A stretch of DNA of 62,215 nt from a virus (lineage: Duplodnaviria > Caudoviricetes), in IMG/VR virus record IMGVR_UViG_3300021335_000015, positions 1-62,215 of that record; one strand, 5' to 3'. Position numbers and translations under genes: made by a program. The stretch's first letter is position 1. Each line of letters starts with the position of its first letter. Positions 16,083 to 35,835 of this stretch are shown here, piece after piece. A model generated the notes under the pieces. The model saw only the letters and a program-made list of their open reading frames with translations, ran no database searches and was not told the DNA's origin.

Positions 16083-16391
16083 ATGTCTCAGTATGGGATC
16101 GAGGTTCGTGGACCTAACAATTCAACACCAGTACTGTCGAGTAGACTACGTGCATCTAACGTAGTCGTTTACTCTCCGTTCGATTTAGACCCGAACGAAA
16201 GTGTCACTATCTCGTGCGCGGACGCCAATGACTCCACAAGAGTTGCAATAACCTTGATGGGTCCAAACACGCCTTTTGGAAATTACCTACGAGGTGTTAT
16301 TGTATCGAATAGAACCTCCACCAACTTCACCATAACGAATGCAGATCCATTCGCCAGATCTGGCACTGTACTCGCTTTTAGGATTGCATAA
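16083..16391 (+). CDS. Small fibre-tip accessory protein, cassette 2
   Basis: MSQYGIEV start, 102 aa, ends VLAFRIA, parallel to 14516-14830. Confidence 0.55.
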   Translation: MSQYGIEVRGPNNSTPVLSSRLRASNVVVYSPFDLDPNESVTISCADANDSTRVAITLMGPNTPFGNYLRGVIVSNRTSTNFTITNADPFARSGTVLAFRIA

Positions 16392-19300
16392 TGAGTTATG
16401 GTTTTAGAATCACGGGGAACGACACCGCACCCTTCACAGTACTCGATACCGAATTAGATACTCTGGGACTAGTGGTCACAGAGAAAGGTCGAGCGAGTGT
16501 CATCAACCCATCATACCCACTAGGACCATACGATTTCTTGTTCGTCAAGAATCCATCTGCGCCTGGTAATTCAAACTTTGAAAGCCAAACCCAATATCCC
16601 GCACCACAGACCGTTGTCTATTGGGCGTCTCCGCAGTATTATTTCATGCACACCAGCAGCACCACAGGTGCGATAAGCTTCAAGGGTGGTGCATATGATT
16701 ACTACCCAGATCCATACAACCCAAGAAACCTGCCTAGACTTGCTTTGGCGACTGGGTGGGACGTAGAGTTTGATTACTTTATTGTTCGTCGATCTACTGA
16801 TATCATATCAGAAGGACTAGGTCGCGATGACAACTACGGTCTACAGGTAAGGAGTAAGTTTTATACGGACGCCGATCCAATTCTTGCGTATGACTCCAGA
16901 TCCGCGATCACCAACGATACATTTTACATAGAAACCTATCTACCTCCGGCTAGTCAGTTCTATACACCAGCTTCGCAGAGTCAGGGATATTACTCAAGTG
17001 TGAGTTTTAGTTCTGGATGTTACGTAAACATCAACTGGACCAATAGAACCATCGGCGGAGACTTCCCTTCGGGGGTCAACTTCATTCAGGCTATCGGCAT
17101 GACTGCGACTAGGGCGTGGGCGGTTACTGGTCTTTTAGAGTTAGAAGATGGTGGACGATTCTTCATCGATGGAAACAGTACCGCGATCCTTGCTGTCAAA
17201 TTAAGAGACCCTTCTAACGTATACCAGAACACGGGTGCTACTGACGCTGACGATGAAGAACAAGAAACCGCACCCGATGGAGATGACGTAGATACAAATT
17301 ATACAGGGTCTCTTGCATATGTTGCGGGGGACACTTTCACTGAAGGTGGAACCATCCAATTCGATGCGACCGTTAACACTCCTAACGTAGGATACCACAC
17401 CAAAATATTCAGAGTCACTGGTAGTGGAGATGATCTGGATGCAATCACTCATGTCTTTACTGGGGGATTCGGCGCAGAGAGAATTAGCATAACAGCAAAT
17501 AATGATTCTGTCAATGATAGTCGTACAGTTTCGTATATGAGAACCCAAAACTACGTGGGCAATTATACAACAACAAGAGACTCATCATACACACGAGGTT
17601 TCTTAGGAAACTTTGCGGGTGACTATACTCGCAACTTTGCAGGAAACTATACTCGCAACAGTTCTTACAACAGGAACTTCGCAGGTAATTATACTAGATC
17701 AAGTGCATACGGCAGAACTTTAAATTTCCAGAGAGACTTCACCAGAAATTATTTAAGAACTCGCGTGTCTAGTTATTCACGTGGAATTGTTTCTTCTAGG
17801 TCTAGTGTTTATTCTAGGATTAGGTTGGCGTATAGTCAGAACAGTTTCGTTGGAAACTATACCAGAATTTTGCAAGTACCAACCGCATTCACCAGAACAG
17901 GTGAGTACGTCGGTAACTACACTCCAACGAAATCTACGGCATATTTCACTCCGGTCACTGGACCTGAAGATCCAGGCGTAATTTACGTAAACATTCCCGC
18001 ACCATTTGTCGGAAACTATAACAGGACATTTGTCGGCAATTATTCAGGCGCATATACCAGAGACTTCACCAGAGGGGTTTCTTATGAAGGCAACTACTCT
18101 CGTAACTTCGCTGGAAACTTCGCTGGTAATTATTCTAGGAATCTATTTTTCTCTCGTAACTTCGTAGGTGATTACGCTCGCGGAGTGGTGAGGGTCTCTT
18201 CATATACTAGGACCAGAGTTACAAATTATACTGGAGACTTCCAAAGAGGATCTACCTATGTGGGTAACTACAGTAGAAACTTTGTGGGTAACTTCGGCAG
18301 AACTATCGCAACGAATAAAACATACAGTAGAACTAGAATAAGTGTTTACACTCCTCTAGCGGATTATGCTAGAACGAGTACACGTACCTTTGTGGGCAGT
18401 CGCACACAAGGATTCATCGGAAACTACAATAGATCATTTATTGGAGACTACACCAGAGGTAGTACTTACGCTAGAAACTTCGTGGGTAACTACACAAGAG
18501 GTAGTACTACCACAGCAAATTACAACAGAACCTTTGTAGGAAACTATAGTAGGACAGAAACTGGAGTCGACCCATATCAATACTCCAGTACCTACGGTTC
18601 AGAGTATCAGTGGATAGTACGACCAGACAATAACGTTGACGACGATGGGTTTGGCACTGGGGGCAGTGGATGGGTATTAGAGGTAAAATGGAATGGAACC
18701 AATGTCTTTGTTGGAGACTATACCACACAGTCTAACGCTCTTGCTGTGACTGTTGTACAGAACCCAGGCCAAACCGAATGGTATTGGAAGGGCGATATCG
18801 TAACTTCCAATCCTTTCTTTGGTTCCTTGTTTGAGGTAGCAAACACTCAAAGTGGATTTGCGCCAACAAATACAACAACCACCAGTTACACTAGAGATAG
18901 GGTCAGTTCCTATTCAAGAACTGTCGGTGGTGCTACTCCATACTCTAGGACCAGACAGTCTACGTACAGTAGAACAATTAACTCCACTCGAAGTAGAGTT
19001 TCTGCATACACGAGAACTCGCAATGTAACCTATAATACAAATAGAGTATCCAGTTATGTGGGCAACTTTACTGGACCTTCTAGTCGATTTATATATGATC
19101 CCGATGCGCAAGGATTGATTGAAGTCTTTAATACTTACACTCGTGAATTCGTAGGTAACTATACGGGACAATACACCAGACAGTCCGGCAGAATTGTAAC
19201 TAGGACCAGTGCCTATTCAAGGACTAGAACTTCGACTTTAAATTCCACGAGAGTGTTCACTGGAAATTTTGCAGGAAACTATAGCAGGAACATAACAGAC

Positions 19301-20494
19301 AATCCTACGTATAATAGAACCAGAAGTTCAGTTTATTCTAGGAGTAGTACATACGCTAGAACCTCAACCAGAACTCGCACAAGCTCTTACACTAGGAACA
19401 GAACCGCTAATCCAGTGAGGACATCCTCGTACTCTGGAACATACAACAGAAACAGGGTGAGTTCGTATACCAGAGATAGGTACTCTACATTCACTAGAAC
19501 TTCTACAAGGTTAATGCACTTTGCAGGTAATACTCCTACAGAGACCGACTATACGAGAACTCGTGTATCCTCTTATCTCGGAAACTACACGGGTGAATAC
19601 ACAAGAGATCTATACTTCACAGGTAACCCAACATACAACAGGAATTTTGTGGGCGAATATGCGAGAACCAGCGTAGGAACATTTACTAGATCTTCTGGAT
19701 ACTCAAGAACCTTGACTTCTAACAGAACTAGAACCAGTGGATACTCAAGAACCTTGACTTCGACTAGAACTAGAACCAGTAATTACACCAGAGAAAGACA
19801 AAGCACGGCAGGGGAAAGTTACATCCGAACGTTTACAGGAAACTTTGTCGGAAACTATATCGGTAATTATACAAGGACTAGTGTCGGAACAAGCTCTGGA
19901 GTTTCTGAGGTCAAGTGGAAAGGTGAACAATTCCTCATGGAACTCCGTGTGGGATCTGCCGGAGAAGCATTGACTTTTGGACAGAACGACGCAAACTCCA
20001 TCATACTTGATTCTAAAACATTTACATTGTTTGATAACGATGCAGGTACAGTTCTTGCGACTACAGGAGTCTCAGTATCGGACACAGACACCACTCACAA
20101 ACTTCTTGTCGACTTCAAGTCCAGTGGCAATCAAGTTGCGAGTGCAAGGGTCACTACGGTTGTCGGTGGAGTGTCTTCGATTATGGCAGGTCCGTTTGAT
20201 CTAGTAGATGGATTGAATGAGGTTACAGTAACCAATGCTCCTCAAGTTGTGTCGGGTGCAGTCGTTACCTACTATATACATGTGAACAATAACGGGACTT
20301 CCGGATACTGGGTGCCTGGCGGACAATACACCGTATCGCGTGTTTACACCAATGATAATGATGGACAAGATCCGCCGCCAGGAGGAACGCCAACAGATAG
20401 TGATGGAACAAATCCACCGGACGGTCCAACAGATCCGGGCAATCCAGATGGACCGGGCGATGAAACCCCAGATCCTGGCTCAGAATTCGATTAG
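16391..20494 (+). CDS. Fibre-tip protein carrying a mirror-paired R/Y/T/G/N/F tetrapeptide hairpin insert
   Basis: N-terminus resembles 14827-15639 (YGFRITG, DYFIV, YGLQVR..YDSR); central repeats FVGN/YTRT/RVSS surround a 110-aa non-repetitive tip. Confidence 0.7.
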   Translation: MSYGFRITGNDTAPFTVLDTELDTLGLVVTEKGRASVINPSYPLGPYDFLFVKNPSAPGNSNFESQTQYPAPQTVVYWASPQYYFMHTSSTTGAISFKGGAYDYYPDPYNPRNLPRLALATGWDVEFDYFIVRRSTDIISEGLGRDDNYGLQVRSKFYTDADPILAYDSRSAITNDTFYIETYLPPASQFYTPASQSQGYYSSVSFSSGCYVNINWTNRTIGGDFPSGVNFIQAIGMTATRAWAVTGLLELEDGGRFFIDGNSTAILAVKLRDPSNVYQNTGATDADDEEQETAPDGDDVDTNYTGSLAYVAGDTFTEGGTIQFDATVNTPNVGYHTKIFRVTGSGDDLDAITHVFTGGFGAERISITANNDSVNDSRTVSYMRTQNYVGNYTTTRDSSYTRGFLGNFAGDYTRNFAGNYTRNSSYNRNFAGNYTRSSAYGRTLNFQRDFTRNYLRTRVSSYSRGIVSSRSSVYSRIRLAYSQNSFVGNYTRILQVPTAFTRTGEYVGNYTPTKSTAYFTPVTGPEDPGVIYVNIPAPFVGNYNRTFVGNYSGAYTRDFTRGVSYEGNYSRNFAGNFAGNYSRNLFFSRNFVGDYARGVVRVSSYTRTRVTNYTGDFQRGSTYVGNYSRNFVGNFGRTIATNKTYSRTRISVYTPLADYARTSTRTFVGSRTQGFIGNYNRSFIGDYTRGSTYARNFVGNYTRGSTTTANYNRTFVGNYSRTETGVDPYQYSSTYGSEYQWIVRPDNNVDDDGFGTGGSGWVLEVKWNGTNVFVGDYTTQSNALAVTVVQNPGQTEWYWKGDIVTSNPFFGSLFEVANTQSGFAPTNTTTTSYTRDRVSSYSRTVGGATPYSRTRQSTYSRTINSTRSRVSAYTRTRNVTYNTNRVSSYVGNFTGPSSRFIYDPDAQGLIEVFNTYTREFVGNYTGQYTRQSGRIVTRTSAYSRTRTSTLNSTRVFTGNFAGNYSRNITDNPTYNRTRSSVYSRSSTYARTSTRTRTSSYTRNRTANPVRTSSYSGTYNRNRVSSYTRDRYSTFTRTSTRLMHFAGNTPTETDYTRTRVSSYLGNYTGEYTRDLYFTGNPTYNRNFVGEYARTSVGTFTRSSGYSRTLTSNRTRTSGYSRTLTSTRTRTSNYTRERQSTAGESYIRTFTGNFVGNYIGNYTRTSVGTSSGVSEVKWKGEQFLMELRVGSAGEALTFGQNDANSIILDSKTFTLFDNDAGTVLATTGVSVSDTDTTHKLLVDFKSSGNQVASARVTTVVGGVSSIMAGPFDLVDGLNEVTVTNAPQVVSGAVVTYYIHVNNNGTSGYWVPGGQYTVSRVYTNDNDGQDPPPGGTPTDSDGTNPPDGPTDPGNPDGPGDETPDPGSEFD

Positions 20495-20508: not shown

Positions 20509-20991
20509 ATGGATAATTTAAAATACATTGCATACATCAATCCAAACACTGGTAAGATAGTACGATTGACTGTGCCGCAGTACAAGGCAGATCCTGAAGG
20601 ACTAGATCAGGACGGTCACTTTGTTGTACACGTCAGCTCGGCAAACTTACCAGAGAACTGTGATGACTTGCGTTACTTCATGGACAATCACTGGTACGAC
20701 ACCGAAAATCACAAATTCATATTTGTCGGTCAACCATGCAACAGTTATGCGACTTGGAGTCTGGAGAAAGGATGGTGGGATTGGGATCCTGAACTAGTAT
20801 ATGCAGACATTCGTAAAACAAGGAATGCGTTGTTGAGTGCTTGTGATTGGACTCAACAAATGGATGTGCCTCTAAGTGAATCAAAACTCCAAGAATGGGT
20901 GACATACCGTCAACAACTGCGTAATATTACAGACAATTTACCAGATGATATTTTGTCAGTAAATGATGTGGTTTGGCCGGTCAGTCCATAA
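20509..20991 (+). CDS. Tail fibre assembly chaperone, paralog of 15645-16073
   Basis: IRKTRNALLSACDWT...WVTYRQQLRNIT...VVWP. Confidence 0.8.
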   Translation: MDNLKYIAYINPNTGKIVRLTVPQYKADPEGLDQDGHFVVHVSSANLPENCDDLRYFMDNHWYDTENHKFIFVGQPCNSYATWSLEKGWWDWDPELVYADIRKTRNALLSACDWTQQMDVPLSESKLQEWVTYRQQLRNITDNLPDDILSVNDVVWPVSP

Positions 20992-21016
20992 GAAAAAACA
21001 ATTTGAGAACTATTGT

Positions 21017-21054
21017 AAAAAAGTGCGGGTACTTCAATCCCCGCACTTTTTTTT
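21017..21054. terminator. Intrinsic (possibly bidirectional) terminator
   Basis: AAAAAAGTGCGGG-loop-CCCGCACTTTTTTTT. Confidence 0.85.
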
Positions 21055-21056
21055 AT

Positions 21057-21064
21057 TATAAATA
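21057..21064 (+). promoter_or_regulatory. T4-type late promoter
   Basis: TATAAATA upstream of the 21117 gene; gp55 is encoded in this window. Confidence 0.85.
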
Positions 21065-21116
21065 ACTACTGTCATTAACCACTTAAATCCTTTTAACTTA
21101 AAAGAGAGACGATATC

Positions 21117-24100
21117 GTGTCAGCATCTAGTATACCACTAAAAATTCAAAATGCTAATGGTGACCTACAGGAATTCACTCCATCGGATGAGTTGTATCTA
21201 TCCTATGCAGTGGGAGAAGCGTTAGTTGCGGCCGCATCTAACGACGTTGGTAATATCAGTTTAACTGATGGCCAATCAATCGGTTCGTTTGTAGATTCTT
21301 ACTACAATGAAATATCTGGTACCCACCCTGCTTCACAGATCACGGGTACCTCAGTGACCACCACTCTGAAGCAAGTGAGTGGCCCAGCAGACGAATCCGG
21401 TGCAGACTTTGTCCGCCCAGTAGGTTATTACGACGTTGCTCCAAACCCAGGCTTCTACGAAATGGTAGACGGGGATATGGACAACTTAGCAGGTCGTGTT
21501 CTATCTAACTTAGTACAGAACGACTATATCGGTACTTTCAAACTGTCCGCTACTCAACCAAGTGCAGACTATACAAAGTTTATTGACTCTGTATTCTCTG
21601 ACACTCACGGTAACGGCGGTGCAGGTACCGTAGTAACAAACTACCACATTTGGATGCGTACTTCTATGACGGCAGTTGCTCCAGTTCGTCCAGTAGCGAC
21701 AAGCTACGACGGTACTGGTTTCAACGGTCTACGTGAAATGACAGATGCCCAGATCCAGTATACACTAGGTCAACGCATCAAGTCACTTCGTGCTACTTCC
21801 GGAGCGATTGGTTCATACCAACTACGTTCAGCAGCACAAGGCGCACCAACAGTCCCAGGCACATGGGTGTCTGTAGGTACTGCACAGAACACACGTCGTA
21901 CACCAGTTGACGTTGCATACGCAAGAACTCGCGTATCTTCATACAACCGTGCACGTGTTTCTGCATACACTCGTACTCGTGTATCTTCATACACGCGTGA
22001 CAGTGTAGATAATTTTGCTCGTACCTTTGTAGGAGACTACACGGGTGCATACTCACGTGACTTCGTAGGAAACTACTCGCGTGACTTTGTTGGGAACTAC
22101 TCACGTACTCGCCCATCATCGTACTCAGGTACATACGCACGTACTCGCGTTTCATCATATTCACGTACTCGCCTAACAGCGTTCACTGGATACTTCGCGG
22201 GAACTTACTCACGTGCTCGTGTTTCGGTTTACACTCGTAACCGCGTAACACCATTTACTGGTACATTCTCACGTAACCGTATATCATCATACACTCGTGG
22301 TCGTGTATCAACCTACTCAGATACATACTCGCGTAATCGTATATCATCATACGCTGCAGCTTATGTTCGTACTCGCGTATCTTCATACACTGGAACTTAT
22401 TCGGGAACATACTCCCGTCTACGTGTCTCTGCGTATGCTGGAACATACACGCGTAACCGTGTTTCTTCTTATGCTGGAACATACACACGAACTCGTGTAT
22501 CTACTTACGCAACTGACTTTACCCGCACCCGTGAAGAGAACTTCGCAGGGACTTACACTGGTTACTATACTGGCGTATTCTCTCGTGCTCGTGTATCAAC
22601 ATATACGCGTAACCGTGTAACAGGTTTCGCAGGTAACTTCATCGGAAACTACTCTCGCAACTTCCAAGGTAACTATTCACGTAACTTCGTGGGTAACTAC
22701 TCTCGTGGATTTGCTGGTAACTACGTAGGTAACTACTCTCGCGTATCAACACGCACATCAACTCGCACACGTTACAGTGCTTACGCAAGAACACGCATCA
22801 CTAACTACGTTGGTGACTTTGCTCGTGATCGCGTCACTAACTTTGCGGGTAACTTCGTGGGCAACTACGCTCGCACCTTCGTAGGTAACTACGGTGGTAA
22901 CTTTATCGGAAACTACGCTCGTGACTTCGTTGGAAACTTCGTTGGTAACTACGCTCGCGCATATGTAGGTAACTACTCTCGCGGATTCGTAGGCAACTAC
23001 GGTCGTAACTACCTTGGTAACTTTGTCGGTAACTACAGCCGTAACTTCCTTGGTGACTTCACCGGAAACTACGCTCGTGGTTTCGTCGGTGACTTCGTTG
23101 GAGATTTCGTAGGTAACTACGCACGTACTTCAACTCGTACATCGACTCGCACACGTTACTCGGCTTATGCTCGTACTCGCGCAACGAACTACACACGTAA
23201 CCGTGGTTCTGCTTACGCTCGTACATCTACTCGTACTCGTTACAGTGCATACGCTCGTACTCGTGCGACAAACTATACAAGAACTCGTGGTTCAGCTTAC
23301 GCACGTACTCGTATCACTAACTACGTTGGTGACTTCGTTCGTACATCGACTCGTAGCAGACCATCTACGTTCTCTTACGCACGTACTCTGTACTACGCAG
23401 GTAACTTCGTAGGCAACTATGGTCGTACTCGTGTAACTAACTACACTCGTGCTTCAGCGGTAGGTGTAACTTATACAGGTAACTACACACGTAACCTATA
23501 CTACGTTGGTAACTACGCTCGTGGATACGCAGGTAACTACGTTGGTGATTATGCTCGTAACCGTGCATTCTCATACGTTGGTAACTATGCTCGTAACCGC
23601 GCATTCTCATATGTCGGTAACTACGCACGTACTCGTGTAACTAACTACACTCGCACATCAACTGGTACTGGCACATATACTCGTAACCGTCCGTACTCAT
23701 TCGTAGGTAACTACACAAGAACTCGTGCGACGAACTATACTCGTACATCAACTGGTACTGGTACATATACTCGTAACCGTGCAGCTTCCTATGCTGGTGA
23801 TTTCGCAGGTAACTTCACGGGTAACTTTACACGTACTGGATCATCGACTCGTGTTTCTACTGGTGGATCGGGTACCTACGTACAAGACCAATACCTAACG
23901 GGTAAAGGTGGTGATACTTACTGGGGTTGGAACGGATACTCGAACCAAGTTGAAATTAAACACAGACTGAAGGGTAACTTTACTGTCACTAGTGGTGTAA
24001 ACGCTAACACTACTATGGTTACCGTTTCTACGGGTGAGACTTTCTGGCGTGGTAATGCAAGAACGAGTGGTACTTATGTACGTTACGGTCTGACATATTA

Positions 24101-26132
24101 CCAAGACGGTACTACGGACTATACTGGTAACTTTACAAATACTACATCATATACTAGCACATCTACTCGCACATCAACACGCACACGTGCAGCTACTTAC
24201 ACAGGTAACTACGCACGTACTTTATACTACACTGGTGATTTCGTAGGTAACTTTGGTGGTACATATACCCGTACTCGTACTGGTAACTACACTGGTAACT
24301 ACACTCGTACTCTATACTACACTGGTGATTTCGTAGGTAACTTTGGTGGTACGTATACTCGTACTCGTACTGGTGCATACACTGGCAACTACGCTCGTAC
24401 TCGTACTGGTAACTACACTGGTAACTACGCACGTACTTCGACTCGCACACGTTACAGTGCTTACGCACGTACTCGCGTTGCGACAGGTACTTACACACGT
24501 AACCGCGCTGCGACACTATACTACACTGGTGACTTTGTAGGTAACTTCGCAGGTGCATACACACGCACATCAACACGTACATCTACTAACACTGGTTACT
24601 ACACACGCACACTAACTTACGCAGGTAACTACGTGGGTAACTATGCGACAACGTTCACTGGCGACTTCGTCGGTAACTATACGCGTAACTTTGCGGGTGA
24701 CTATGTTGGTAACTTCGTAGGTAACTATACACGTGGATTTGCTGGTGACTTCGTAGGCAACTACGCTCGCACATTCGTGGGTGATTTCGTAGGTAACTTC
24801 GTAGGTAACTATGCACGTGGATACGCTGGTAACTTTGCTGGCGACTTCGTCGGTAACTACGCACGTACTCGTGTAACTAACTACACTCGTACTCGTAACT
24901 CTGCGTACACACGTAACCGCACACAGAACTTTGCGAACTCTTACTCTCGCACACGTGAAACAAACTTCACTGGTTACTTCACACGTAACCGTGCATCCGC
25001 ATACGCTCGTACTCGTTACAGCGCATACGCTCGCACACGTGTAACTAACTACGTCGGTGACTTCACACGCGATTCAACCCGCACATCTACTCGTAACCGT
25101 GGTTCGGCTTACGCACGTGATCGTGTAACCAACTTCGCTGGTAACTTCGTAGGAAACTACGCAACAACGTTTACCGGAGACTTTGTTGGTAACTACGCAC
25201 GTGGATTTGCTGGTGACTTTGCTGGTAACTTTACTGGTGACTATGCTCGTACTTCAACGCGCACTCGTTACTCTGCATACGCACGTACTCGTGTATCTGC
25301 ATACGTCCGCAACCGTGGATCATCATACACCCGTGACCGTGTAACTAACTTTGCTGGTGACTTCGTAGGCAACTACGCTCGCACCTTCACTGGTAACTAC
25401 ACACGTCAGTTCGCTGGTGAGTATGTTGGTGATTACGTAGGAACGTTCGCAGGTAACTACGTAGGCAACTTCAGCCGTGACTTCGGTGGAAACTACGTTG
25501 GTAACTACGCTCGTGGATTTGCTGGTAACTATGTTGGTAACTACAACCGTAGTTTCGCAGGTGAGTACACTGGTGCTTACTCTGGTGCATACTCTCGTAA
25601 CTTCGTGGGTGACTACACAGGTAACTACAACCGTGGATTCGCAGGTGAGTATGTGGGCAACTACGCAACCACATTTACTGGTAACTACTCTCGTGGATTC
25701 TCCGGTCAGTACACACGCGACTTCGCAGGTGACTTCGTGGGTAACTACTCAAGAACATTTGCTGGTGAGTACACTGGTGCTTATGCGCGTGACTTTACAG
25801 GTAACTTCGTGGGTAACTACTCGCGTGACTTCGTCGGTGAGTACACTGGTGCTTACTCTCGTGACTTCGTAGGTAACTACTCTCGTGTCCGTGTATCTGC
25901 ATACGCACGTATCAGACCATCTGCTTACTCAGGTGCATACACACGTGACCGTGTTTCTTCTTACCTAGGAAACTTCATCGGTAACTACTCTCGTGACTTT
26001 GGTGGTAACTACACCCGTGAGTTTGCTGGAAACTACGCACGTAGTTTCGTCGGTAACTACATCGGTCAGACCATCTCTGGTACAGAGACACACGTTACAG
26101 ATGTGTACACACTATACGTAAGGGTTGCATAA
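21117..26132 (+). CDS. Giant self-complementary hairpin fibre protein (267-aa base, 650-aa arm, 84-aa tip, 650-aa arm, 20-aa tail)
   Basis: GTG start after AGAGAG, late promoter upstream, strongly biased codons; tetrapeptide units match in mirror order. Confidence 0.85.
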   Translation: MSASSIPLKIQNANGDLQEFTPSDELYLSYAVGEALVAAASNDVGNISLTDGQSIGSFVDSYYNEISGTHPASQITGTSVTTTLKQVSGPADESGADFVRPVGYYDVAPNPGFYEMVDGDMDNLAGRVLSNLVQNDYIGTFKLSATQPSADYTKFIDSVFSDTHGNGGAGTVVTNYHIWMRTSMTAVAPVRPVATSYDGTGFNGLREMTDAQIQYTLGQRIKSLRATSGAIGSYQLRSAAQGAPTVPGTWVSVGTAQNTRRTPVDVAYARTRVSSYNRARVSAYTRTRVSSYTRDSVDNFARTFVGDYTGAYSRDFVGNYSRDFVGNYSRTRPSSYSGTYARTRVSSYSRTRLTAFTGYFAGTYSRARVSVYTRNRVTPFTGTFSRNRISSYTRGRVSTYSDTYSRNRISSYAAAYVRTRVSSYTGTYSGTYSRLRVSAYAGTYTRNRVSSYAGTYTRTRVSTYATDFTRTREENFAGTYTGYYTGVFSRARVSTYTRNRVTGFAGNFIGNYSRNFQGNYSRNFVGNYSRGFAGNYVGNYSRVSTRTSTRTRYSAYARTRITNYVGDFARDRVTNFAGNFVGNYARTFVGNYGGNFIGNYARDFVGNFVGNYARAYVGNYSRGFVGNYGRNYLGNFVGNYSRNFLGDFTGNYARGFVGDFVGDFVGNYARTSTRTSTRTRYSAYARTRATNYTRNRGSAYARTSTRTRYSAYARTRATNYTRTRGSAYARTRITNYVGDFVRTSTRSRPSTFSYARTLYYAGNFVGNYGRTRVTNYTRASAVGVTYTGNYTRNLYYVGNYARGYAGNYVGDYARNRAFSYVGNYARNRAFSYVGNYARTRVTNYTRTSTGTGTYTRNRPYSFVGNYTRTRATNYTRTSTGTGTYTRNRAASYAGDFAGNFTGNFTRTGSSTRVSTGGSGTYVQDQYLTGKGGDTYWGWNGYSNQVEIKHRLKGNFTVTSGVNANTTMVTVSTGETFWRGNARTSGTYVRYGLTYYQDGTTDYTGNFTNTTSYTSTSTRTSTRTRAATYTGNYARTLYYTGDFVGNFGGTYTRTRTGNYTGNYTRTLYYTGDFVGNFGGTYTRTRTGAYTGNYARTRTGNYTGNYARTSTRTRYSAYARTRVATGTYTRNRAATLYYTGDFVGNFAGAYTRTSTRTSTNTGYYTRTLTYAGNYVGNYATTFTGDFVGNYTRNFAGDYVGNFVGNYTRGFAGDFVGNYARTFVGDFVGNFVGNYARGYAGNFAGDFVGNYARTRVTNYTRTRNSAYTRNRTQNFANSYSRTRETNFTGYFTRNRASAYARTRYSAYARTRVTNYVGDFTRDSTRTSTRNRGSAYARDRVTNFAGNFVGNYATTFTGDFVGNYARGFAGDFAGNFTGDYARTSTRTRYSAYARTRVSAYVRNRGSSYTRDRVTNFAGDFVGNYARTFTGNYTRQFAGEYVGDYVGTFAGNYVGNFSRDFGGNYVGNYARGFAGNYVGNYNRSFAGEYTGAYSGAYSRNFVGDYTGNYNRGFAGEYVGNYATTFTGNYSRGFSGQYTRDFAGDFVGNYSRTFAGEYTGAYARDFTGNFVGNYSRDFVGEYTGAYSRDFVGNYSRVRVSAYARIRPSAYSGAYTRDRVSSYLGNFIGNYSRDFGGNYTREFAGNYARSFVGNYIGQTISGTETHVTDVYTLYVRVA

Positions 26133-26153
26133 GCGACCCTTCTATGTTATAAT
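26125..26153 (+). promoter_or_regulatory. Sigma70-type promoter with extended -10
   Basis: TTGCAT-17 nt-TATAAT preceded by TGn. Confidence 0.6.
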
Positions 26154-26169
26154 AGAAGTCTGAATATAG

Positions 26170-26190
26170 GTGGGTCTTCGGACCCACTTT
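26170..26190 (+). terminator. UUCG-loop hairpin (terminator or 5' stabiliser)
   Basis: GTGGGTC-TTCG-GACCCAC-TTT. Confidence 0.7.
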
Positions 26191-26245
26191 ATTAGTCATA
26201 TACATAAAGTTAGAATTGAATTGAACCCTTTTGGAGAATGAGTAA

Positions 26246-26707
26246 ATGAGTTATAGACGTTGGATGGACAACGCTTTTTGGGAAACAGAAGAAAAGAAAG
26301 AACTAAACTGTATCCTAGAAATGGAAGATGATGTGGGTCGTGTCACCCGTCAACAGATGATGTTGTCAAGACATGACCGTGATGGAAATCCTAACGAGTT
26401 GTTTGCAGAAGTTGTAGATGCGCTTGGTGAAGAGTTGATTGATAAGGAAACTACCGATCGAGTCGAACGCAAAGCTGCGGAGGCGGAAGAAGAGAAACAA
26501 CGTGAGTTGGAACATCAAAAGGCAAGGAAACTTGAGAAACTGTTCAACTATAAACTAGAAGCGTTTGAGGTTGAAGAGATCAAGAACTCTAAGAACCGAA
26601 AGTTGAAGGCAAAATTGCGTCGTGCAAAATCAAAGATTGAAGTCGATATGTACTCAATCATGATTCTACAAGACCAACTAGAGGCCGAGACCGATGGAAA
26701 AGAGTAA
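26246..26707 (+). CDS. Hypothetical charged helical protein
   Basis: 153-aa ORF with GGAG SD, overlaps the next gene. Confidence 0.65.
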   Translation: MSYRRWMDNAFWETEEKKELNCILEMEDDVGRVTRQQMMLSRHDRDGNPNELFAEVVDALGEELIDKETTDRVERKAAEAEEEKQRELEHQKARKLEKLFNYKLEAFEVEEIKNSKNRKLKAKLRRAKSKIEVDMYSIMILQDQLEAETDGKE

Positions 26708-27431
26708 AGGGTTTATTATCGTTGCGTCAAAGAAACGCAACTTTTATTTGTACGCAATCAATCTTGCAGAGTCTCTCAGGGACTACTATGAACCAGAAGA
26801 GGAATGCAAGATCTGTTTGGTGACTGAGGAACGATTCCTTGATGACCGTGGTCGAGATGTCGCAGACGATATTCTCTTATGTGACGATCACTACCGCGCG
26901 AAGTTGTGGGGAATGGCGAAATCGCCGTATGACCTAACGATGTATATCGATGCTGATATGGAAGTAGAACACGAAGACATCTGTAAAGTTTGGGATGAAA
27001 TGAAAGATCACGATGTGGTCTTTACTGCTTTGACAGATGATCGTGACTACATATATGCAGAACGTGACTTCGACACCCCAGAGGGTGTTTCTAAGTTCAC
27101 ACTATGCGGTGCAGTATGTTTATATGATATGTCCAAACCGATTGTGCGTGAGTTCATGGATGATTGGTGGGACTTGACATTCAGACAGATGAATGACACT
27201 TGGTGGCCAGACGGGTATGCGGACAGTCTCAAATCTTGGGACCAGTTCTCACTCTGGTGGTTGACCGAGAAAGAAGAAAAGTATAAGGATCTCAAAGTTG
27301 GAATCTTTGATGACGACTTGAGATGGAACTACTACAACGCACTTAATTGGGCAATAACAAAACCAGAAACAGGGCCAGTGATTATCCGTCACTTCTCTGC
27401 TGGTCTTAATAAGGATACACCAATCGTATGA
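26694..27431 (+). CDS. GT-A fold glycosyltransferase-like protein
   Basis: GFIIVA start, KLWGMAKSPYDLTMYIDAD (DxD), WDQFSL, RWNY and IIRH motifs. Confidence 0.7.
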   Translation: MEKSKGFIIVASKKRNFYLYAINLAESLRDYYEPEEECKICLVTEERFLDDRGRDVADDILLCDDHYRAKLWGMAKSPYDLTMYIDADMEVEHEDICKVWDEMKDHDVVFTALTDDRDYIYAERDFDTPEGVSKFTLCGAVCLYDMSKPIVREFMDDWWDLTFRQMNDTWWPDGYADSLKSWDQFSLWWLTEKEEKYKDLKVGIFDDDLRWNYYNALNWAITKPETGPVIIRHFSAGLNKDTPIV

Positions 27432-29922: not shown

Positions 29923-32900
29923 ATGGCATTTAGGCAGATTAAATCCCCTGCATTAGCGGACAAGGCGGTACTCAATACCAAACTTGACGAAAGTGCTGTA
30001 CAGGGACAATCAACCCTTCAAGGTATGGTAAATCCAGCTGACTGCTTTACTCTTCTTTACGATGTGGGTTCTGACTCACTAAAGAAGATTGGTGCAGACC
30101 AGTTTTTCGCTTCGTTCAGCACGTCTGACCTAGCGGAAGGTTCTAACCTATACTATACCGCCGATCGTGCTAATGCTGATGTCGCTGCTCAAATCGACGC
30201 AGACGTTCTAGTAGAAACACAACGCGCACAAGCTGCAGAAACACTACTACAGAACAACATCGACGCAGAAGCAAGTGCTCGTGCTCAAGCAGACGTTACC
30301 CTACAGGCTAACATCACTGCGGAAGAGACACGCGCGAAGGCACGTGAAGATTCAATCGAAGCTGCATACATTGCGGCAGATGCTGCATTACAGACACAGA
30401 TCAGTAACTTCATCAATAACGTAGACAGCGATTCACTAGACTCTCTAGCGGAAATCGTAGAAGCATTCCAGAACGCGGACGACGCACTATCTGCTTCTAT
30501 CATCGCAAACGCTACTGCAATCACAACCGAAGTTAACCGTGCTGTTGCAAAAGAAACAGAAATCAACGACCGTGTTACTGTCGAAATATCTCGCGCTCAA
30601 TCAGCAGAAACTTCACTTGCTGGTCTAATCGGCGCGGAAGAGACTGCACGTATCGCTGGCGACAACGCACTATCTGCACGACTAGACACAGAAGAGACCA
30701 AGTCTACTTCTCTACAGTCTCAGATCACTGCTGAAGTCACTCGCGCTACTGGCGAAGAGTCACGTATCGAAGGTCGTCTTGACGGCGAGATCTCTCGTGC
30801 AACTAGCGCAGAAGCTGCAAACGCACAAAACATCCAAGATGAGATCGTTGCACGTGCAGTTGCTGACAACCAAGTTCGTACTGATCTAGGCGCAGACATC
30901 GTTGCGGCAGAAGCTGCGGCGAAGGCACACGCTGAGTCACAAGACGAAACAATGATCGGTGATGAGACTGTTGATGGTACTTCAGGTAACACAATCACAG
31001 ATCGTATTGCAACTGCAAAAGCAGAAGCAATCACTGAATCAAGCAACTCAACTGCAATCGAGAACGCTGCACGTATCGCAGGCGACTCTGATCTGAACGC
31101 TCGCGTTGATCAAGAAATCGTTGATCGTCTTGCTGGTGACGCTGCTAACTCAGCAGAAGTTGCGGCAGAAAAGACACGTGCGGAAGGTGTTGAAGCAGGT
31201 CTACAATCACAGGTCGACTTCATCACATCAAACACTGATCCAGCGGCACTAGACTCACTAACAGAAATCGTTGGTGCGTTCCAGTCTGCGGACTCAGATA
31301 TGTCCGCTCTAATCGCATCTAACACTACTGCGATTTCAAACGAAGCGACTGCTCGTTCGTCTGCTGACACTACTCTACAGGGCAACATTGATGCAGAAGC
31401 ATCAACTCGTTCAACTGCGGATGCGGGTCTACAGTCTCAGATCGATCAGATCAACGTTGACATCAACGTCTCAACACAAGACGTACTAGATCAAGCGAAG
31501 GCATATACGGATCAAGAAGCTGATTCGCACATGGCGGAAGCTAAGCAACACGCTGACGCACAAGACACTGCACTAATCGGTGACGCATCTGTAAACGGTA
31601 CTAGTGGAAACACAATCACTGACCGTATCGCAACTGCGAAGCAACAGGCAGTATCACACGCAAACGCAATCGTATCTACAGAAGAAGCTGCTCGTATCGC
31701 TGCTGACGATGCACTATCTCTACGTACAACAGTACTAGAAGGCGAGATGGATGCTGTCGAGACTCTATCTTCACAGAACGAAACAGACCTACGTGCAGAA
31801 GAAGTTGCACGTGCATCTGGTGACTCAGACCTACAAGCACAGGTCGATGCACTAAACTCCAACACTACAATCGAAGTTGATGATCTACAAGCACAGATCA
31901 CTGCGGAAGTTACTCGCGCATCTACTGCGGAAGCAACAAACGCGGCATCTGTCGTTACAGAACGTCAACGTGCAGAAGGTGTTGAAGCAGGTCTACGCGC
32001 TGACATCAACACAAACATTGGTAACATCTCTACAAACGCAGGTAACATCACGATCGAGCAAGCTGCACGTATCGCTGGTGATGCGGCACTATCGACTCGC
32101 GTTGATAACCTAGAAGAAGGTTTCACAAACGTTGACTCTGATCTACAAGCTCAGATCTTCGCAGAAGTCGCTCGTGCATCTGGTGCTGAATCAGTACTAA
32201 CTGCAACTGCAACTAGTCTACAAGGTCAGATCACTGACAACGATTCAGACATCCTTGCCCTACAGGGTCTAGTTGGTTCTGACGTACAAGATCTACAAGA
32301 CCAGTTAGATGCAGAGGTTTCTCGTGCAACTACAGCAGAAGGTGTTAACGCTGCGGCAGTTGTGGCAGAGAAGAATCGTGCAGAAGGTGTTGAAGCAGGT
32401 CTACGTACAGACGTTGATTCTAACCAATCACAAATCACTGCAAACGATTCAGATATCCTTGCACTTCAGATCCTACAGGCATCTGATCACAACGATAACC
32501 AAGCACAGATCACTGCTGAAGTTAACCGTGCGACTGCCGCTGAAGGCGTCCTACAGTCTAACATCGATGCAGAACAGGCACGTGCTGAAGGTATCGAATC
32601 TGGTCTACGTACTGACGTAGATAGTGTACAGGCGCAGGTTACTGCAAATGACTCTGACATCCTTGCTCTACAAAATCTACAATCAGGTGACGTTACAGAC
32701 CTACAGAACCAGTTGGACGCAGAAATTGTTCGTGCTACTGGTGTTGAAACTGGTATCCGCACAGACCTAACAACTCTTGAAGGTCGTGTTGACTTTATCG
32801 TTTCTAACGAAGATGGTGCGGCACTAGACTCACTAACAGAAATTGTTGGTGCGTTCCAAGACGCAGACTCAGATCTACAAGGTGTTATCGATGCTAACGG

Positions 32901-35835
32901 TGGTCGTCTAACTACCCTAGAATCAGAAATGGACGCAGTCGAACTACGTGCTACTGACCTAGAAGCAAAAGACGTTGCTCACACTAACCGACTAAACGGT
33001 TTAGATTCTGATCAGATCGTACAAAACACTCGTTTGAGCGGTGTTGAAGGACGTGCTACTGCACTAGAAACCAAGCAAGGTTCTGCACTTCTACACACAA
33101 CTGCAACAAACGTTTCTGACGCGATTAACGAACTACACGCAGAGATCGATGGCGAAGCTGCTGATCTAACTGCACTAGAAGCTCGTGTAACCACAGAAGA
33201 AGCAAACGTTGACGAACTACAAGCAGAAATGGATGCCGTCGAAGCACGTGCAACTGCTCTTGAAGGTCGCGCAACTGTAAACGAAGGTGACATCGATGAC
33301 CTAGAAACTAAGGTCGGAACTGCATCTCTTGCAACTGTTGCAACTGATCTATCTGCTGCAATCAACGAACTACACGCTGAACTAGACGTAGAAGTTGGTG
33401 ACCTAACATCACTAGAAGGTCGCGTAACTACTGCTGAAGGTGAGATCGATACACTGCAATCAGAAATGGATGCAGTCGAAGGTCGCGCAACTTCACTAGA
33501 ATCACGCATGACAACTGAAGAAGGTCACGTTGACGTTCTACAGGGTCAGATGGGTTCACAAGTACTAACAACAACTGCATCAACTGTTACTGCTGCTGTC
33601 AACGAGTTACACGCTCAGACAGACGTAGACGAAGGTCGTATCTCTACCCTAGAAGGTGAGATGGACGCGGTTGAAGGTCGTGCAACTTCACTAGAGACTC
33701 GTGCTACTGCGCTAGAGACAGAACAGACACTACAAGCTGGTCGTCTAACTGTCAACGAAGCAGACATCGACGCTCTTGAATCGAAGGTCGGTGCTGAAGC
33801 ATTCGACACAACTGCACAGACAATCTCTGGTGCTGTGAACGAAGTTCACGGTGAACTAGACGCAGTTGAAGGTCGTATGACTGCTGCTGAGTCTCGTGCT
33901 GACGCGGACAGTGACGCTCTTGTACAAGAGATCGCTGATCGTACTGCTGCGGACACACAGATCCGTATTGATCTAGCTGCTGATCGTACAACTGACCAAT
34001 CAGACTACATCGCACGTGACGCGGTTGTCCTTGCATCTGCACAATCATACGCAGAAGCAGAAGCGGACGACGCAGAAGCTGCTGCTAAGACATACGCAGA
34101 TGGCATCGTTGCGAACGAAGCTGCACTACGTTCTGGTGCTGATGCAACTCTACAGGGTAACATCGACGCAGAAGCAACTGCACGTCAAATTGCTGACAAC
34201 GGACTAGACTCACGTCTAACAGTTGTTGAGACAGAGATGACTGCAACTCAACTTGCTGCTGGTGTAAACGCTGATGGTACTTACAACACACCAACAGGTT
34301 CTAACTACCTAGACGCATCTACATCTCTATCAGATGCAGCTGCGAAACTAGATGCGGCAATCAAGGCAGTTGACAACACACGCAACTCTGGCACTAACAA
34401 TCTACAATCACAGATTGATGCTGAGATCGCACGTGCTACCGCTGCTGAAGGTGCAAACACCGTACTAATCAACGGTGAGATTGCTCGTGCAACTAGTGCG
34501 GAATCTGACCTAGGTGATCTGATCACAACTAACGCTCAGTCAATCGCTGCAGAAGCTGCACGTGCGCAGGGTGTTGAGACATCACTACAGTCACAGATCG
34601 ACTTCGTCGTATCTAACACTGACTCTGCTGCACTAGATTCTCTAACAGAGATCGTTGCTGCACTTCAGTCTGGTGATGGTGATCTACTAACTCTAATCCA
34701 AACTAACCAAACAGACATCGCTACTAACGCTTCTGGACTTGCACAAGAGATCACTGATCGTGCAGCACAGGGTGCGGCGATTCGTGGTGAGTTCGCTGCT
34801 GCGGACGCAACCCTACAGACTCAGATCGACGGTAAAGTCGCTAAGTCTGGAGACACCATGTCTGGTTCTCTATCAATGGGTGGCAACAAAGTCACTTCAG
34901 TCGCTAACGGTACAGACCCACAAGACGCAGTAAACAAGGGTCAGTTGGATGCAGGTCTTGCTGCACAACACATCTCGCAGTTCTCAACTACAGATGTTGC
35001 CGAAGGTGATAACCTATACTTCACAACTGCTCGTGCACGTGCCTCAGTATCTGCGGTCGACACTGCTGGTGAAGGTAAGGTATCTTACGATCCATCGACT
35101 GGTGCATTCTCAGTTGACACTGCTAAGTCTATCCTAGAACTAGTAGACGTTGCTGATTCATCATACGACGGTAAGAACGGTTACGTTCTACGTGTAACTA
35201 ACACGCTAGACGGAATGTCTCTACAGGATCCAACTCAGTTGGCATTCAACAACGCACAGCGTCAGACAATGGCTGGTGACGGTGCACAGACTACATTCGC
35301 ACTAGACTTCTACACGCAAGACCAAAACGCAATCGTCTTCGTTGGTGGTGTTATTCAGGATCCAGGCGTACACTACAACATTGATGCGATCAACCAGTTG
35401 ATCACATTCAACGCTGCAATCCCAGTTGGTACACAAGCGGTTGTAATCGCTCAGTCTACTAACTCGGTTGGTGTACTAGATCCTAAGTCGGTAGGTCTGG
35501 AAACTCTTGCTGATAACATCAAGGTCTTCGAACAGGGTAACGACATTGTCGCTGGAACTTCTGCTACTGTAGTTTCTGCATTCAACAAGTCTCAGTACCG
35601 TTCTGCGAAGTATGTTGTAACAGTAGAGTCAGGTGGTGAATTCGAAACTCGTGAGGCACTAGTTGTCCACGATGGAACATCCGCTTACATCGTTGAGTAT
35701 GGTGTCGTATTCACTGGTTCATCATTCCTAGGTGATACAGACGTACAAGTTAACGGAGAAAGTATCGAACTACTATACACCGCTGAATCAGCAGGTGCGG
35801 TAGTTTCTGTCTCAGTAACTTACGTTGACGCATAA
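29923..35835 (+). CDS. 1970-aa coiled-coil fibre/whisker protein
   Basis: E-x-x-R-A-x-x-A-E repeats, four LDSL(T/A)EIV knots, YadA-like VANGTDPQDAVNKGQL neck, two (D)xxEGxNLY motifs, C-terminal YRSAKYVV domain. Confidence 0.75.
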   Translation: MAFRQIKSPALADKAVLNTKLDESAVQGQSTLQGMVNPADCFTLLYDVGSDSLKKIGADQFFASFSTSDLAEGSNLYYTADRANADVAAQIDADVLVETQRAQAAETLLQNNIDAEASARAQADVTLQANITAEETRAKAREDSIEAAYIAADAALQTQISNFINNVDSDSLDSLAEIVEAFQNADDALSASIIANATAITTEVNRAVAKETEINDRVTVEISRAQSAETSLAGLIGAEETARIAGDNALSARLDTEETKSTSLQSQITAEVTRATGEESRIEGRLDGEISRATSAEAANAQNIQDEIVARAVADNQVRTDLGADIVAAEAAAKAHAESQDETMIGDETVDGTSGNTITDRIATAKAEAITESSNSTAIENAARIAGDSDLNARVDQEIVDRLAGDAANSAEVAAEKTRAEGVEAGLQSQVDFITSNTDPAALDSLTEIVGAFQSADSDMSALIASNTTAISNEATARSSADTTLQGNIDAEASTRSTADAGLQSQIDQINVDINVSTQDVLDQAKAYTDQEADSHMAEAKQHADAQDTALIGDASVNGTSGNTITDRIATAKQQAVSHANAIVSTEEAARIAADDALSLRTTVLEGEMDAVETLSSQNETDLRAEEVARASGDSDLQAQVDALNSNTTIEVDDLQAQITAEVTRASTAEATNAASVVTERQRAEGVEAGLRADINTNIGNISTNAGNITIEQAARIAGDAALSTRVDNLEEGFTNVDSDLQAQIFAEVARASGAESVLTATATSLQGQITDNDSDILALQGLVGSDVQDLQDQLDAEVSRATTAEGVNAAAVVAEKNRAEGVEAGLRTDVDSNQSQITANDSDILALQILQASDHNDNQAQITAEVNRATAAEGVLQSNIDAEQARAEGIESGLRTDVDSVQAQVTANDSDILALQNLQSGDVTDLQNQLDAEIVRATGVETGIRTDLTTLEGRVDFIVSNEDGAALDSLTEIVGAFQDADSDLQGVIDANGGRLTTLESEMDAVELRATDLEAKDVAHTNRLNGLDSDQIVQNTRLSGVEGRATALETKQGSALLHTTATNVSDAINELHAEIDGEAADLTALEARVTTEEANVDELQAEMDAVEARATALEGRATVNEGDIDDLETKVGTASLATVATDLSAAINELHAELDVEVGDLTSLEGRVTTAEGEIDTLQSEMDAVEGRATSLESRMTTEEGHVDVLQGQMGSQVLTTTASTVTAAVNELHAQTDVDEGRISTLEGEMDAVEGRATSLETRATALETEQTLQAGRLTVNEADIDALESKVGAEAFDTTAQTISGAVNEVHGELDAVEGRMTAAESRADADSDALVQEIADRTAADTQIRIDLAADRTTDQSDYIARDAVVLASAQSYAEAEADDAEAAAKTYADGIVANEAALRSGADATLQGNIDAEATARQIADNGLDSRLTVVETEMTATQLAAGVNADGTYNTPTGSNYLDASTSLSDAAAKLDAAIKAVDNTRNSGTNNLQSQIDAEIARATAAEGANTVLINGEIARATSAESDLGDLITTNAQSIAAEAARAQGVETSLQSQIDFVVSNTDSAALDSLTEIVAALQSGDGDLLTLIQTNQTDIATNASGLAQEITDRAAQGAAIRGEFAAADATLQTQIDGKVAKSGDTMSGSLSMGGNKVTSVANGTDPQDAVNKGQLDAGLAAQHISQFSTTDVAEGDNLYFTTARARASVSAVDTAGEGKVSYDPSTGAFSVDTAKSILELVDVADSSYDGKNGYVLRVTNTLDGMSLQDPTQLAFNNAQRQTMAGDGAQTTFALDFYTQDQNAIVFVGGVIQDPGVHYNIDAINQLITFNAAIPVGTQAVVIAQSTNSVGVLDPKSVGLETLADNIKVFEQGNDIVAGTSATVVSAFNKSQYRSAKYVVTVESGGEFETREALVVHDGTSAYIVEYGVVFTGSSFLGDTDVQVNGESIELLYTAESAGAVVSVSVTYVDA

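Follow-up and report, generated by a model that had tools for sequence, protein, structure and literature searches.

A probable hairpin fiber of a marine phage whose two arms change length in matched pairs

The stretch of DNA considered here (the window, 62,215 nucleotides from a virus of the Duplodnaviria, Caudoviricetes) is a 62-kb piece of the IMG/VR virus record IMGVR_UViG_3300021335_000015, with a completeness estimate of 34%, and it contains one very long gene, the open reading frame (ORF) at 21117..26132 (+), which encodes a protein of 1671 amino acids (aa) from a GTG start and is referred to below as the hairpin gene. The window also encodes baseplate-wedge, tail-fiber and terminase genes, as judged by PHROG matches, with the baseplate-wedge and tail-fiber PHROGs upstream of the hairpin gene, and directly upstream of the latter is the gene of a tail-fiber assembly chaperone (Table 1). 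Such a location, in the tail/baseplate module and beside a fiber assembly chaperone, is a feature of phage tail fibers in general. The gene order is the same in Phage C48C1 (Kyanoviridae), and in 50,697 phage records a single true homolog is present, the 3347-aa 'hypothetical protein' of this phage. The close homologs of the hairpin protein (loci L002-L020) all start at the same GTG-encoded position (V-S-A-S-S... in direct translation).

The protein is without annotation. It matches no Pfam family and, at E ≤ 1, no PDB sequence, its single match among the PHROGs is a weak one to a family of unknown function (E 3e-4), its feature matches in the ESM Atlas (≤0.88) are unnamed viral clusters, and a cluster look-up gave no informative names.

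The sequence is divided into an N-terminal anchor domain, two repeat-containing arms of equal length separated by a non-repeat knob, and a short C-terminal tail (Table 1). In the arms, Arg-rich segments of period 8 alternate with Gly-rich segments of period 4, 8 or 12, and the repeats are rich in Gly, Thr and aromatic residues. His, Lys, Cys, Met and Trp are absent from both arms, which leaves Arg, with 100 residues in the outgoing (N) arm and 77 in the returning (C) arm, as the sole basic residue. Acidic residues are few (18 and 33 on the two arms), and hence the net charge is about +82 and +44 per chain and the rod would be extremely basic. This charge may be neutralized through cation-pi pairing or may serve in binding to a polyanionic surface. 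No inverted repeats were found in the DNA of the hairpin gene, so the symmetry of the arms described below is confined to the protein level.

Table 1. Features of the hairpin gene and its upstream neighbor, with positions in the window.
Feature	Position	Strand	Basis or remark
Tail-fiber assembly chaperone gene, directly upstream	20509..20991	+	Pfam Phage_tail_APC, E 1.2e-14; PHROG tail fiber assembly families
Whole gene, putative hairpin fiber protein of an unannotated marine-phage family	21117..26132	+	ORF call and homologs
N-terminal anchor domain, aa 1-267	21117..21917	+	94-98% identity between close alleles
Outgoing (N) arm, aa 268-914, 647 aa	21918..23858	+	Period 4/8 repeats, Arg-rich and Gly-rich segments alternating
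Variable patch, N arm, aa 388-450	22278..22466	+	Allele divergence
12-aa tandem duplication, N arm, aa 812-835	23550..23621	+	3/36 nt differ, all synonymous
30-aa tandem duplication, N arm, aa 832-891	23610..23789	+	Tandem Repeats Finder and copy comparison
Hypervariable distal cassette, about aa 840-1080 (knob and adjoining piece of each arm)	23634..24356	+	Nucleotide identity to 8 alleles
Distal non-repeat knob of 87 aa (aa 915-1001), candidate tip for receptor binding	23859..24119	+	Motif-defined borders
Returning (C) arm, aa 1002-1648, 647 aa	24120..26060	+	Antiparallel register, pair table
30-aa tandem duplication, C arm, aa 1028-1087, sequence unlike the N-arm unit	24198..24377	+	Tandem Repeats Finder and copy comparison
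Period-12/36 repeats, C arm, opposite the N-arm 12-aa duplication	24358..24437	+	Tandem Repeats Finder
Variable patch, C arm, aa 1466-1528, opposite aa 388-450	25512..25700	+	Allele divergence
C-terminal tail, aa 1649-1671, and stop codon	26061..26132	+	Family-wide conserved ending

The two arms are related by an antiparallel register in which residue i is opposite residue 1916 - i, that is, the sum S = i + j is 1916. Facing pairs of Arg and Gly peak at this value with 86-87 pairs, compared with 61 in the next best register and a background of 19 +/- 13. This register extends over both of the tandem duplications discussed below, from 268/1648 to about 905/1011, with aromatic residues opposite aromatic residues and Arg opposite Gly. 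In the pair table of 647 rungs there are 86 pairs of Arg with Gly (R:G + G:R), 47 of Arg with Phe (R:F + F:R), 53 of Tyr with Tyr and 80 of aromatic with aromatic residues, and not one of the rungs is Arg:Arg despite the large number of Arg on both arms. For a shuffle test the arms were cut to 268-905 and 1011-1648 and the C arm was shuffled in blocks of 8, 16 or 40 aa. The observed count at the base-anchored offset is 85 Arg:Gly pairs, while the maximum count in the shuffles averages 51 (sd 3, highest 67), and 85 was reached in 0/2000 shuffles at each of the three block sizes (0/6000 overall). A parallel arrangement of the arms, used as a control, yields 53 Arg:Gly pairs. In addition, the smoothed Arg-minus-Gly tracks of the arms are mirror-anticorrelated about aa 958 (r = -0.77). 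The first-pass annotation of this DNA, which was made from the letters alone, had taken as its premise that the arms form a hairpin in fixed register, and this is supported by three independent lines of evidence, namely this register of ~640 residues, the matched arm lengths of natural alleles and the mirrored divergence between them.

The N domain was used to scan viral contigs for natural alleles, which yielded 22 loci (16 complete ORFs, 14 of them of 1526-2282 aa and two of 309 aa, and six that run off the contig), and in a scan of a single metagenome five of 78 loci are close relatives. With identical sequences removed, these provide nine distinct close alleles, that of the window (WIN) included. 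Flank length was measured on each side from a conserved arm anchor to the knob border, from motif to motif and without use of the register. The resulting lengths, N/C in aa, are 82/82, 86/86, 54/54 (three alleles), 58/58, 68/68, 118/118 and, in L043, 58/62. The flanks are therefore equal on both arms in eight of the nine alleles and within 4 aa in the ninth, over six different N-flank lengths, and the discrepancy in L043 arises because its border motif is tandemly repeated. Pairwise alignment with the window protein reveals paired insertions or deletions (indels) of 28 + 28 aa (L002, L006, L012 and L013), 24 + 24 aa (L003) and 20 + 24 aa (L008 and L009), as well as 28 aa at position 674 paired with 28 aa at about 1192-1209 (L007 and L014) and paired insertions of +30/+30 aa in L014 and +60/+60 aa in L019. 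Gly-type sequence on one arm is opposite Arg-type sequence on the other in the extra pieces of L003, L043, L007 and L014. In L014 it is the N arm that has the Gly-type addition and the C arm the Arg-type one, so these additions are complementary and not copies. The earlier proposal of strong selection on register is supported by these data. It had named a search of metagenomic variants for single-arm intermediates as its check and common natural alleles with unmatched duplications as its refutation, and a repeat insertion on a single arm is present in 0/9 distinct close alleles. The contigs of four sequencing runs break inside the repeats, where the sides of the joints are 20-38 letters long (<30 where a stretch was skipped), and rare variants are not resolvable in them.

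The divergence of the alleles is mirrored as well. Nucleotide identity to eight alleles is about 90-100% along most of the gene and 36-85% in the bins starting at aa 841 to 1051, and the borders of this distal cassette mirror each other, with residue 840 opposite 1076. Among close relatives the N domain is 94-98% identical compared with 45-74% for the knob, for which the matrix of all alleles ranges from 22 to 81%, and a hypervariable distal part among close relatives is a further feature of phage tail fibers in general. The same allele groups emerge from the identity matrix of either flank, namely (WIN, L004) at 64/77% (N/C), (L002, L013, L006) at 67-81/74-76% and (L003, L043) at 84/88%. The knob identities, however, conflict with these groups (74% for WIN-L003, 36% for L003-L043 and 40% for WIN-L004). 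Hence the flanks travel as a pair while the knob is exchanged inside. When the divergence profile of the eight alleles along the N arm (270-800) is compared with the mirrored C arm at 380 offsets (mean r 0.05, sd 0.23), the best correlation, r = 0.70, falls exactly at S = 1916. This peak is due to two further variable patches that face each other, aa 388-450 and aa 1466-1528, in which nucleotide divergence between allele groups is ~20% compared with 3-5% in the neighboring arm. The allele groups are the same in both patches, whose distance matrices correlate with r = 0.82, and they differ from the groups of the distal cassette. As judged from these identities, the modules are nested, with facing arm pieces co-inherited and the knob reassorting independently.

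The tandem duplications that first drew attention to this gene lie on either side of the knob. Tandem Repeats Finder (TRF) returned 48 rows for 21000-27000, of which only two are period-90 arrays, at 23586-23780 and 24198-24402. The first-pass annotation had placed a 30-aa duplication at 23610-23789 and another, of different sequence, at 24198-24377, and both lie exactly there. The N-arm copies (23610-23699 and 23700-23789, aa 832-861 and 862-891) differ at 18/90 nt, with seven synonymous and five non-synonymous codon differences, and the C-arm copies (24198-24287 and 24288-24377, aa 1028-1057 and 1058-1087) differ at 9/90 nt, with four synonymous and two non-synonymous differences. Each duplication was also said to be exactly 26 aa from the tip. 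With motif-defined knob borders this is so on the C side (26 aa, 1002-1027) and not on the N side (23 aa), a difference that comes from where the tip is cut and does not point to a real asymmetry. In the register, residue 891 is opposite 1025, three residues ahead of the start of the C duplication, and the duplicated run of the N arm as delimited by TRF (aa 824-888) is opposite aa 1028-1092, which matches the C run (aa 1028-1096) within 4 aa. The 12-aa duplication of the N arm, likewise described at the outset as facing repeats, is opposite aa 1081-1104, and TRF does find period-12 and period-36 repeats there (24378-24428 and 24358-24437, respectively). The odds that a run of ~65 aa on an arm of ~650 aa would be mirrored within 4 aa by chance are roughly 1-2%, which is an estimate and not a computed test. 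Both arms are rich in repeats. The evidence that carries weight comes from the register over the whole arms and from the natural alleles.

The layout with two copies on each arm (2+2) had been explained by two separate compensating events or by nested recombination. The second of these stands in the sense that matched pairs travel together, while the origin of the 2+2 layout itself is not settled, and two separate events or one double-junction event are both possible. A doubtful though possible account is that, in a protein that does form a hairpin, the 2+2 layout was made in one step, either by a gene conversion or double crossover that slipped by one 90-nt unit or by the import of a matched cassette, and that selection acted only afterwards. 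This would be in keeping with the paired travel of the facing flanks around a swapped knob, with a variable cassette that has mirrored borders, and with the presence of the same 2+2 layout in L004, as a result of which a single origin suffices for the present data set. In addition, short GNY-type DNA words are shared by the starts of all the N and C units, and junctions could slip there. However, neither a donor nor an intermediate was found among the alleles compared, the divergence between copies (18/90 nt on the N arm versus 9/90 nt on the C arm) is unlike that of a simultaneous origin, though the numbers are small, and the nucleotide distance matrices of the 30-aa units from five alleles give no resolved tree. 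The synonymous divergence within the copy pairs, comparison of which had been proposed as a check, is 7 versus 4 codon differences, and neither the copy divergence nor the distance matrices order the events.

A structural view of the hairpin is provided by AlphaFold2 (AF2), which was applied to a mini homolog of 312 aa (L022, 25-row alignment A2) and gave a mean predicted local distance difference test (pLDDT) of 89 and a predicted template modeling score (pTM) of 0.80. In the model an alpha/beta N domain precedes a long beta-hairpin of strands 234-266 and 269-310 with a two-residue turn, and the hairpin leaves this domain just past a conserved GTW motif. The hairpin base and the C tail, which lies inside strand 269-310, are confident (pLDDT >90), and on this model the C-terminal tail of the window protein is predicted to pair with the strand that emerges from the N domain. 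The G of the GTW motif is opposite L-2 in the mini model and opposite L-3 in the window protein according to the Arg:Gly register, where L is protein length, so that AF2 and the Arg:Gly statistics, which are independent methods, agree within one residue. The mini model together with the period-4 pattern suggests that the long arms would be beta-ribbons like that of the mini homolog. Foldseek searches with the mini model gave no match at E ≤ 0.001 in the PDB or BFVD, and the top weak matches (E 0.03-0.3) are hairpin stems of pore-forming proteins, which align in the long two-stranded hairpin and nowhere else. Mini members of 300-345 aa, which include L022:9992-10927, have an arm of ~20 aa per side and a tight turn. 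Two occurrences of the motif series PLK...EMTD...GGTW make their N domain resemble an internal duplication.

The model also bears on an improbable alternative, in which the arms pair between chains, with two extended chains (or trimers) arranged head to tail and the knob in the middle of the rod. The register, the matched indels and the mirrored divergence need only a constant i + j and fit pairing within or between chains alike. In contrast, the AF2 mini homolog folds back on itself through its two-residue turn and confident base, near-knobless members (L015, L017 and the mini forms) are found, as a tight turn would predict, variability is highest in the knob, in keeping with a distal tip that is exposed, and T4 gp37 is an earlier example of an out-and-back chain (PMC6957217). 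That there is no physical pairing at all, and that the mirrored duplications are a coincidence or the by-product of recombination hot spots in a repeat-rich gene, as the 48 TRF rows in the gene region and the ambiguity of local register scoring in periodic stretches might suggest, is scarcely credible given that 0/6000 shuffles reach the observed Arg:Gly count, that Arg:Arg rungs number 0/647, that flank lengths are equal in 8/9 alleles over six lengths, and that the mirrored divergence peaks at exactly the same register.

Several observations nevertheless weigh against an intramolecular hairpin of strict register throughout. When windows of 80 aa are scored, periodic stretches leave the register ambiguous by multiples of 4 or 8. 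In a set of 51 complete, non-identical members (814-2282 aa), the global register is chosen by the middle third of the arms in 42 and by the distal third in 41. The proximal third, however, is at offset 0 in 14/51 and mostly at -8, and all three thirds agree in 11/51. For the proximal third, which in the window is 21918-22560 (aa 268-480) against 25420-26060, the score at -8 is slightly better in most members. A bulge of eight residues conserved near the base would account for this preference, as would an ambiguity of the period-8 repeats. A gapped antiparallel alignment, in which the net gap is zero by construction and small bulges are not to be trusted, places bulges of 4-28 aa in many distant members. 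The register may be relaxed in places, or else it is beyond the resolution of the scoring. In the homolog of C48C1 there is a non-repeat domain of 248 aa on the returning arm only (aa 1805-2052), with a register shift of +247. In this protein (L040:612-10655, 3347 aa) the N-arm segment 795-1260 is at i + j = 2664 and 495-644 is at 2911, and more non-repeat domains are found at aa 2405-2560 and 2642-2802. From its sequence, one-sided globular insertions seem to be tolerated. The difference between S and protein length is 245 or 242 in all ten proteins of 1526-2282 aa, a constancy that anchors the hairpin base only, and L052 and L072 break this base-anchored rule (S-L 33 and 10). What is forbidden thus seems to be an unmatched stretch of repeats rather than every one-sided insertion. 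As to structure, the repeat part of the mini-model hairpin has a pLDDT of only 57-62, and AF2 on aa 700-1216 of the long form (12-row alignment) gave a pLDDT of 28 and is unusable. Finally, the alleles are metagenome assemblies of a repetitive gene, for which assembly error is possible, though independent contigs agree.

With these points taken into account, we consider the explanation as a whole, which combines a hairpin fiber of fixed register with paired length changes and nested modules, to be quite probable. The fiber of a T4-like marine myophage would consist of one very long hairpin made up of an anchor domain, an outgoing arm of 647 aa, a knob of 87 aa and a returning arm of 647 aa, with the last ~23 residues docked beside the strand that leaves the anchor domain. 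The arms would form an antiparallel beta-ladder with residue i opposite 1916 - i, one face of which would have an aromatic residue opposite another every 4 or 8 positions, while Arg would be opposite Gly (86 pairs) or an aromatic residue (47 pairs) and never opposite Arg. Each rung would be set by both arms, such that units added to one arm alone would shift all of the distal rungs out of register, and because the rungs are specified in this way only paired length changes would persist. Viable length variants would then carry equal insertions on both arms, and the two 30-aa duplications would be one such pair. Variants with a change on one arm would have been purged by selection rather than never made. 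Recombination within conserved repeats would pass on facing pieces of the arms together and swap the knob inside. We infer that the protein is a virion fiber, perhaps trimeric, which at ~0.33 nm per rung would be roughly 200 nm long, and that the knob is a putative receptor-binding tip through which the host would be bound.

The window protein is one of a large group. With the 312-aa mini homolog as seed, 433 representative clusters are recovered at E ≤ 0.001, the listed members of which range from short fragments to 1335 aa, and homologs from other searches extend to 2654 aa and 3347 aa. Family members share an N-terminal motif and the C-terminal tail. In P0001 (1798 aa), P0025 and P0047, precomputed Pfam domains include PF13385 Laminin_G_3, PF14312 and PF25171, and these annotations suggest that lectin-like domains may replace or join the knob in some members. 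No published description of this hairpin family, or of a hairpin fiber with matched indels in its arms, was found in a search that did not extend to subscription journals and supplements.

Other sequences in the window and in related phages resemble the hairpin gene to various degrees. The gene upstream of that of the chaperone (16391-20494, +) encodes 1367 aa and contains Arg-type and Gly-type repeats like those of the hairpin gene, with ~340 aa of repeats on either side of a central non-repeat region (about aa 725-830), and its N- and C-terminal domains are unlike those of the hairpin gene. A mirror register is weakly favored at i + j = 1552 (33 marks versus 31), and from its repeats this gene may be a second, interrupted hairpin fiber. 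Matches by tblastn in 63 Synechococcus phage records, such as that to the S-RIM2 'structural protein' (31% over aa 1454-1589), were rejected as family members. The S-RIM2 match falls on an unrelated period-4 TGN-type repeat in a different fiber of 1912 aa. A match in an Enterococcus phage (29% identity, 14% coverage) lies where no gene is annotated. A 1970-aa neighbor in the window (29923-35835, +) has weak matches to coiled stalks (YadA_stalk, E 0.0017) and may be the positional counterpart of the 1912-aa S-RIM2 'structural protein', which precedes the neck genes. With this and other large genes, the window encodes several very large fiber-like proteins.

If the proposed architecture is correct, it would represent a natural molecular ruler for host recognition, with tunable length and a swappable tip, in abundant uncultured marine myophages. 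It would also provide a testable architecture for a large marine-phage family of 'hypothetical' proteins of great length, for the long form of which structure prediction failed. The paired additions, equal in size and made on arms separated by about 600 nt, are a clear natural example of compensated length evolution, here in a beta structure. Provided that receptor binding resides in the knob, the nested modules show how tip and length can change without breaking the fold, which would be a rule of use in engineering. A ladder in which Arg is opposite Gly and aromatic residues are opposite each other, without Arg:Arg, is a simple code for tests in protein design.

Among known systems, long two-stranded hairpins are also found in the stems of pore-forming proteins (aerolysin, CDTb and the anthrax protective antigen pore), and it is only in this that the window protein resembles them. 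It has no membrane-type alternation and no sequence relation to them, its context is different, and it is not a member of that group. A second analogy, which is one of principle only, is with SMC and Rad50, which also have two long antiparallel arms of one chain and a globular element at the fold. In these proteins indels need to be matched on both helices. The arms of SMC and Rad50 consist of alpha-helical heptads in chromosomal proteins, whereas those of the window protein have a period of 4/8, are strands in the AF2 mini model and belong to a virus. The length of the SMC/Rad50 arms is treated as a constrained property (PMC5344682).

The closest comparison is with T4 gp37, the tip of which was reportedly described by Bartual et al. 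in 2010 as a trimeric needle of six antiparallel strands. In both phages a dedicated chaperone gene is nearby. In gp37 the proximal collar D10 comprises residues 811-881 and 1010-1026 and the elongated D11 residues 882-1009, and the chain runs out to the tip and back, with N-side and C-side segments that meet at the base (PMC6957217). The same out-and-back path is found in the window protein, as can be seen from the register that extends from 268/1648 to ~905/1011 and from the AF2 mini hairpin with its base-pairing C tail. There are, however, substantial differences. The arms are 647 aa long compared with about 60 in gp37, about ten times longer, and gp37 folds back its last ~240 residues only, whereas the window protein folds back everything beyond the N domain. 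The zipper of Arg, Gly and aromatic residues with period 4/8 is not described for gp37. The metal-binding HxH motifs that lie along the needle core of gp37 (PMC6957217) have no equivalent in the window protein, which has no HxH at any position and no His in its arms. No sequence or profile similarity of the window protein to the tips of T4 gp37 or lambda Stf was detected in Pfam, PHROGs or the PDB. Hence the window protein is gp37-like in topology and is not a member of the gp37 family. Whether it stands for a previously undescribed class of phage fiber, that of a very long two-stranded beta-zipper with arms of about 20 to about 1000 residues, a length that changes only in paired increments, and rungs and a tip that are shuffled as nested modules, is a question on which we are evenly divided. 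Together with its homologs it is part of a new, widespread and unannotated family, presumably of fibers, that combines a regular self-complementary hairpin with the paired evolution of nested modules, along the out-and-back path that it has in common with T4 gp37.

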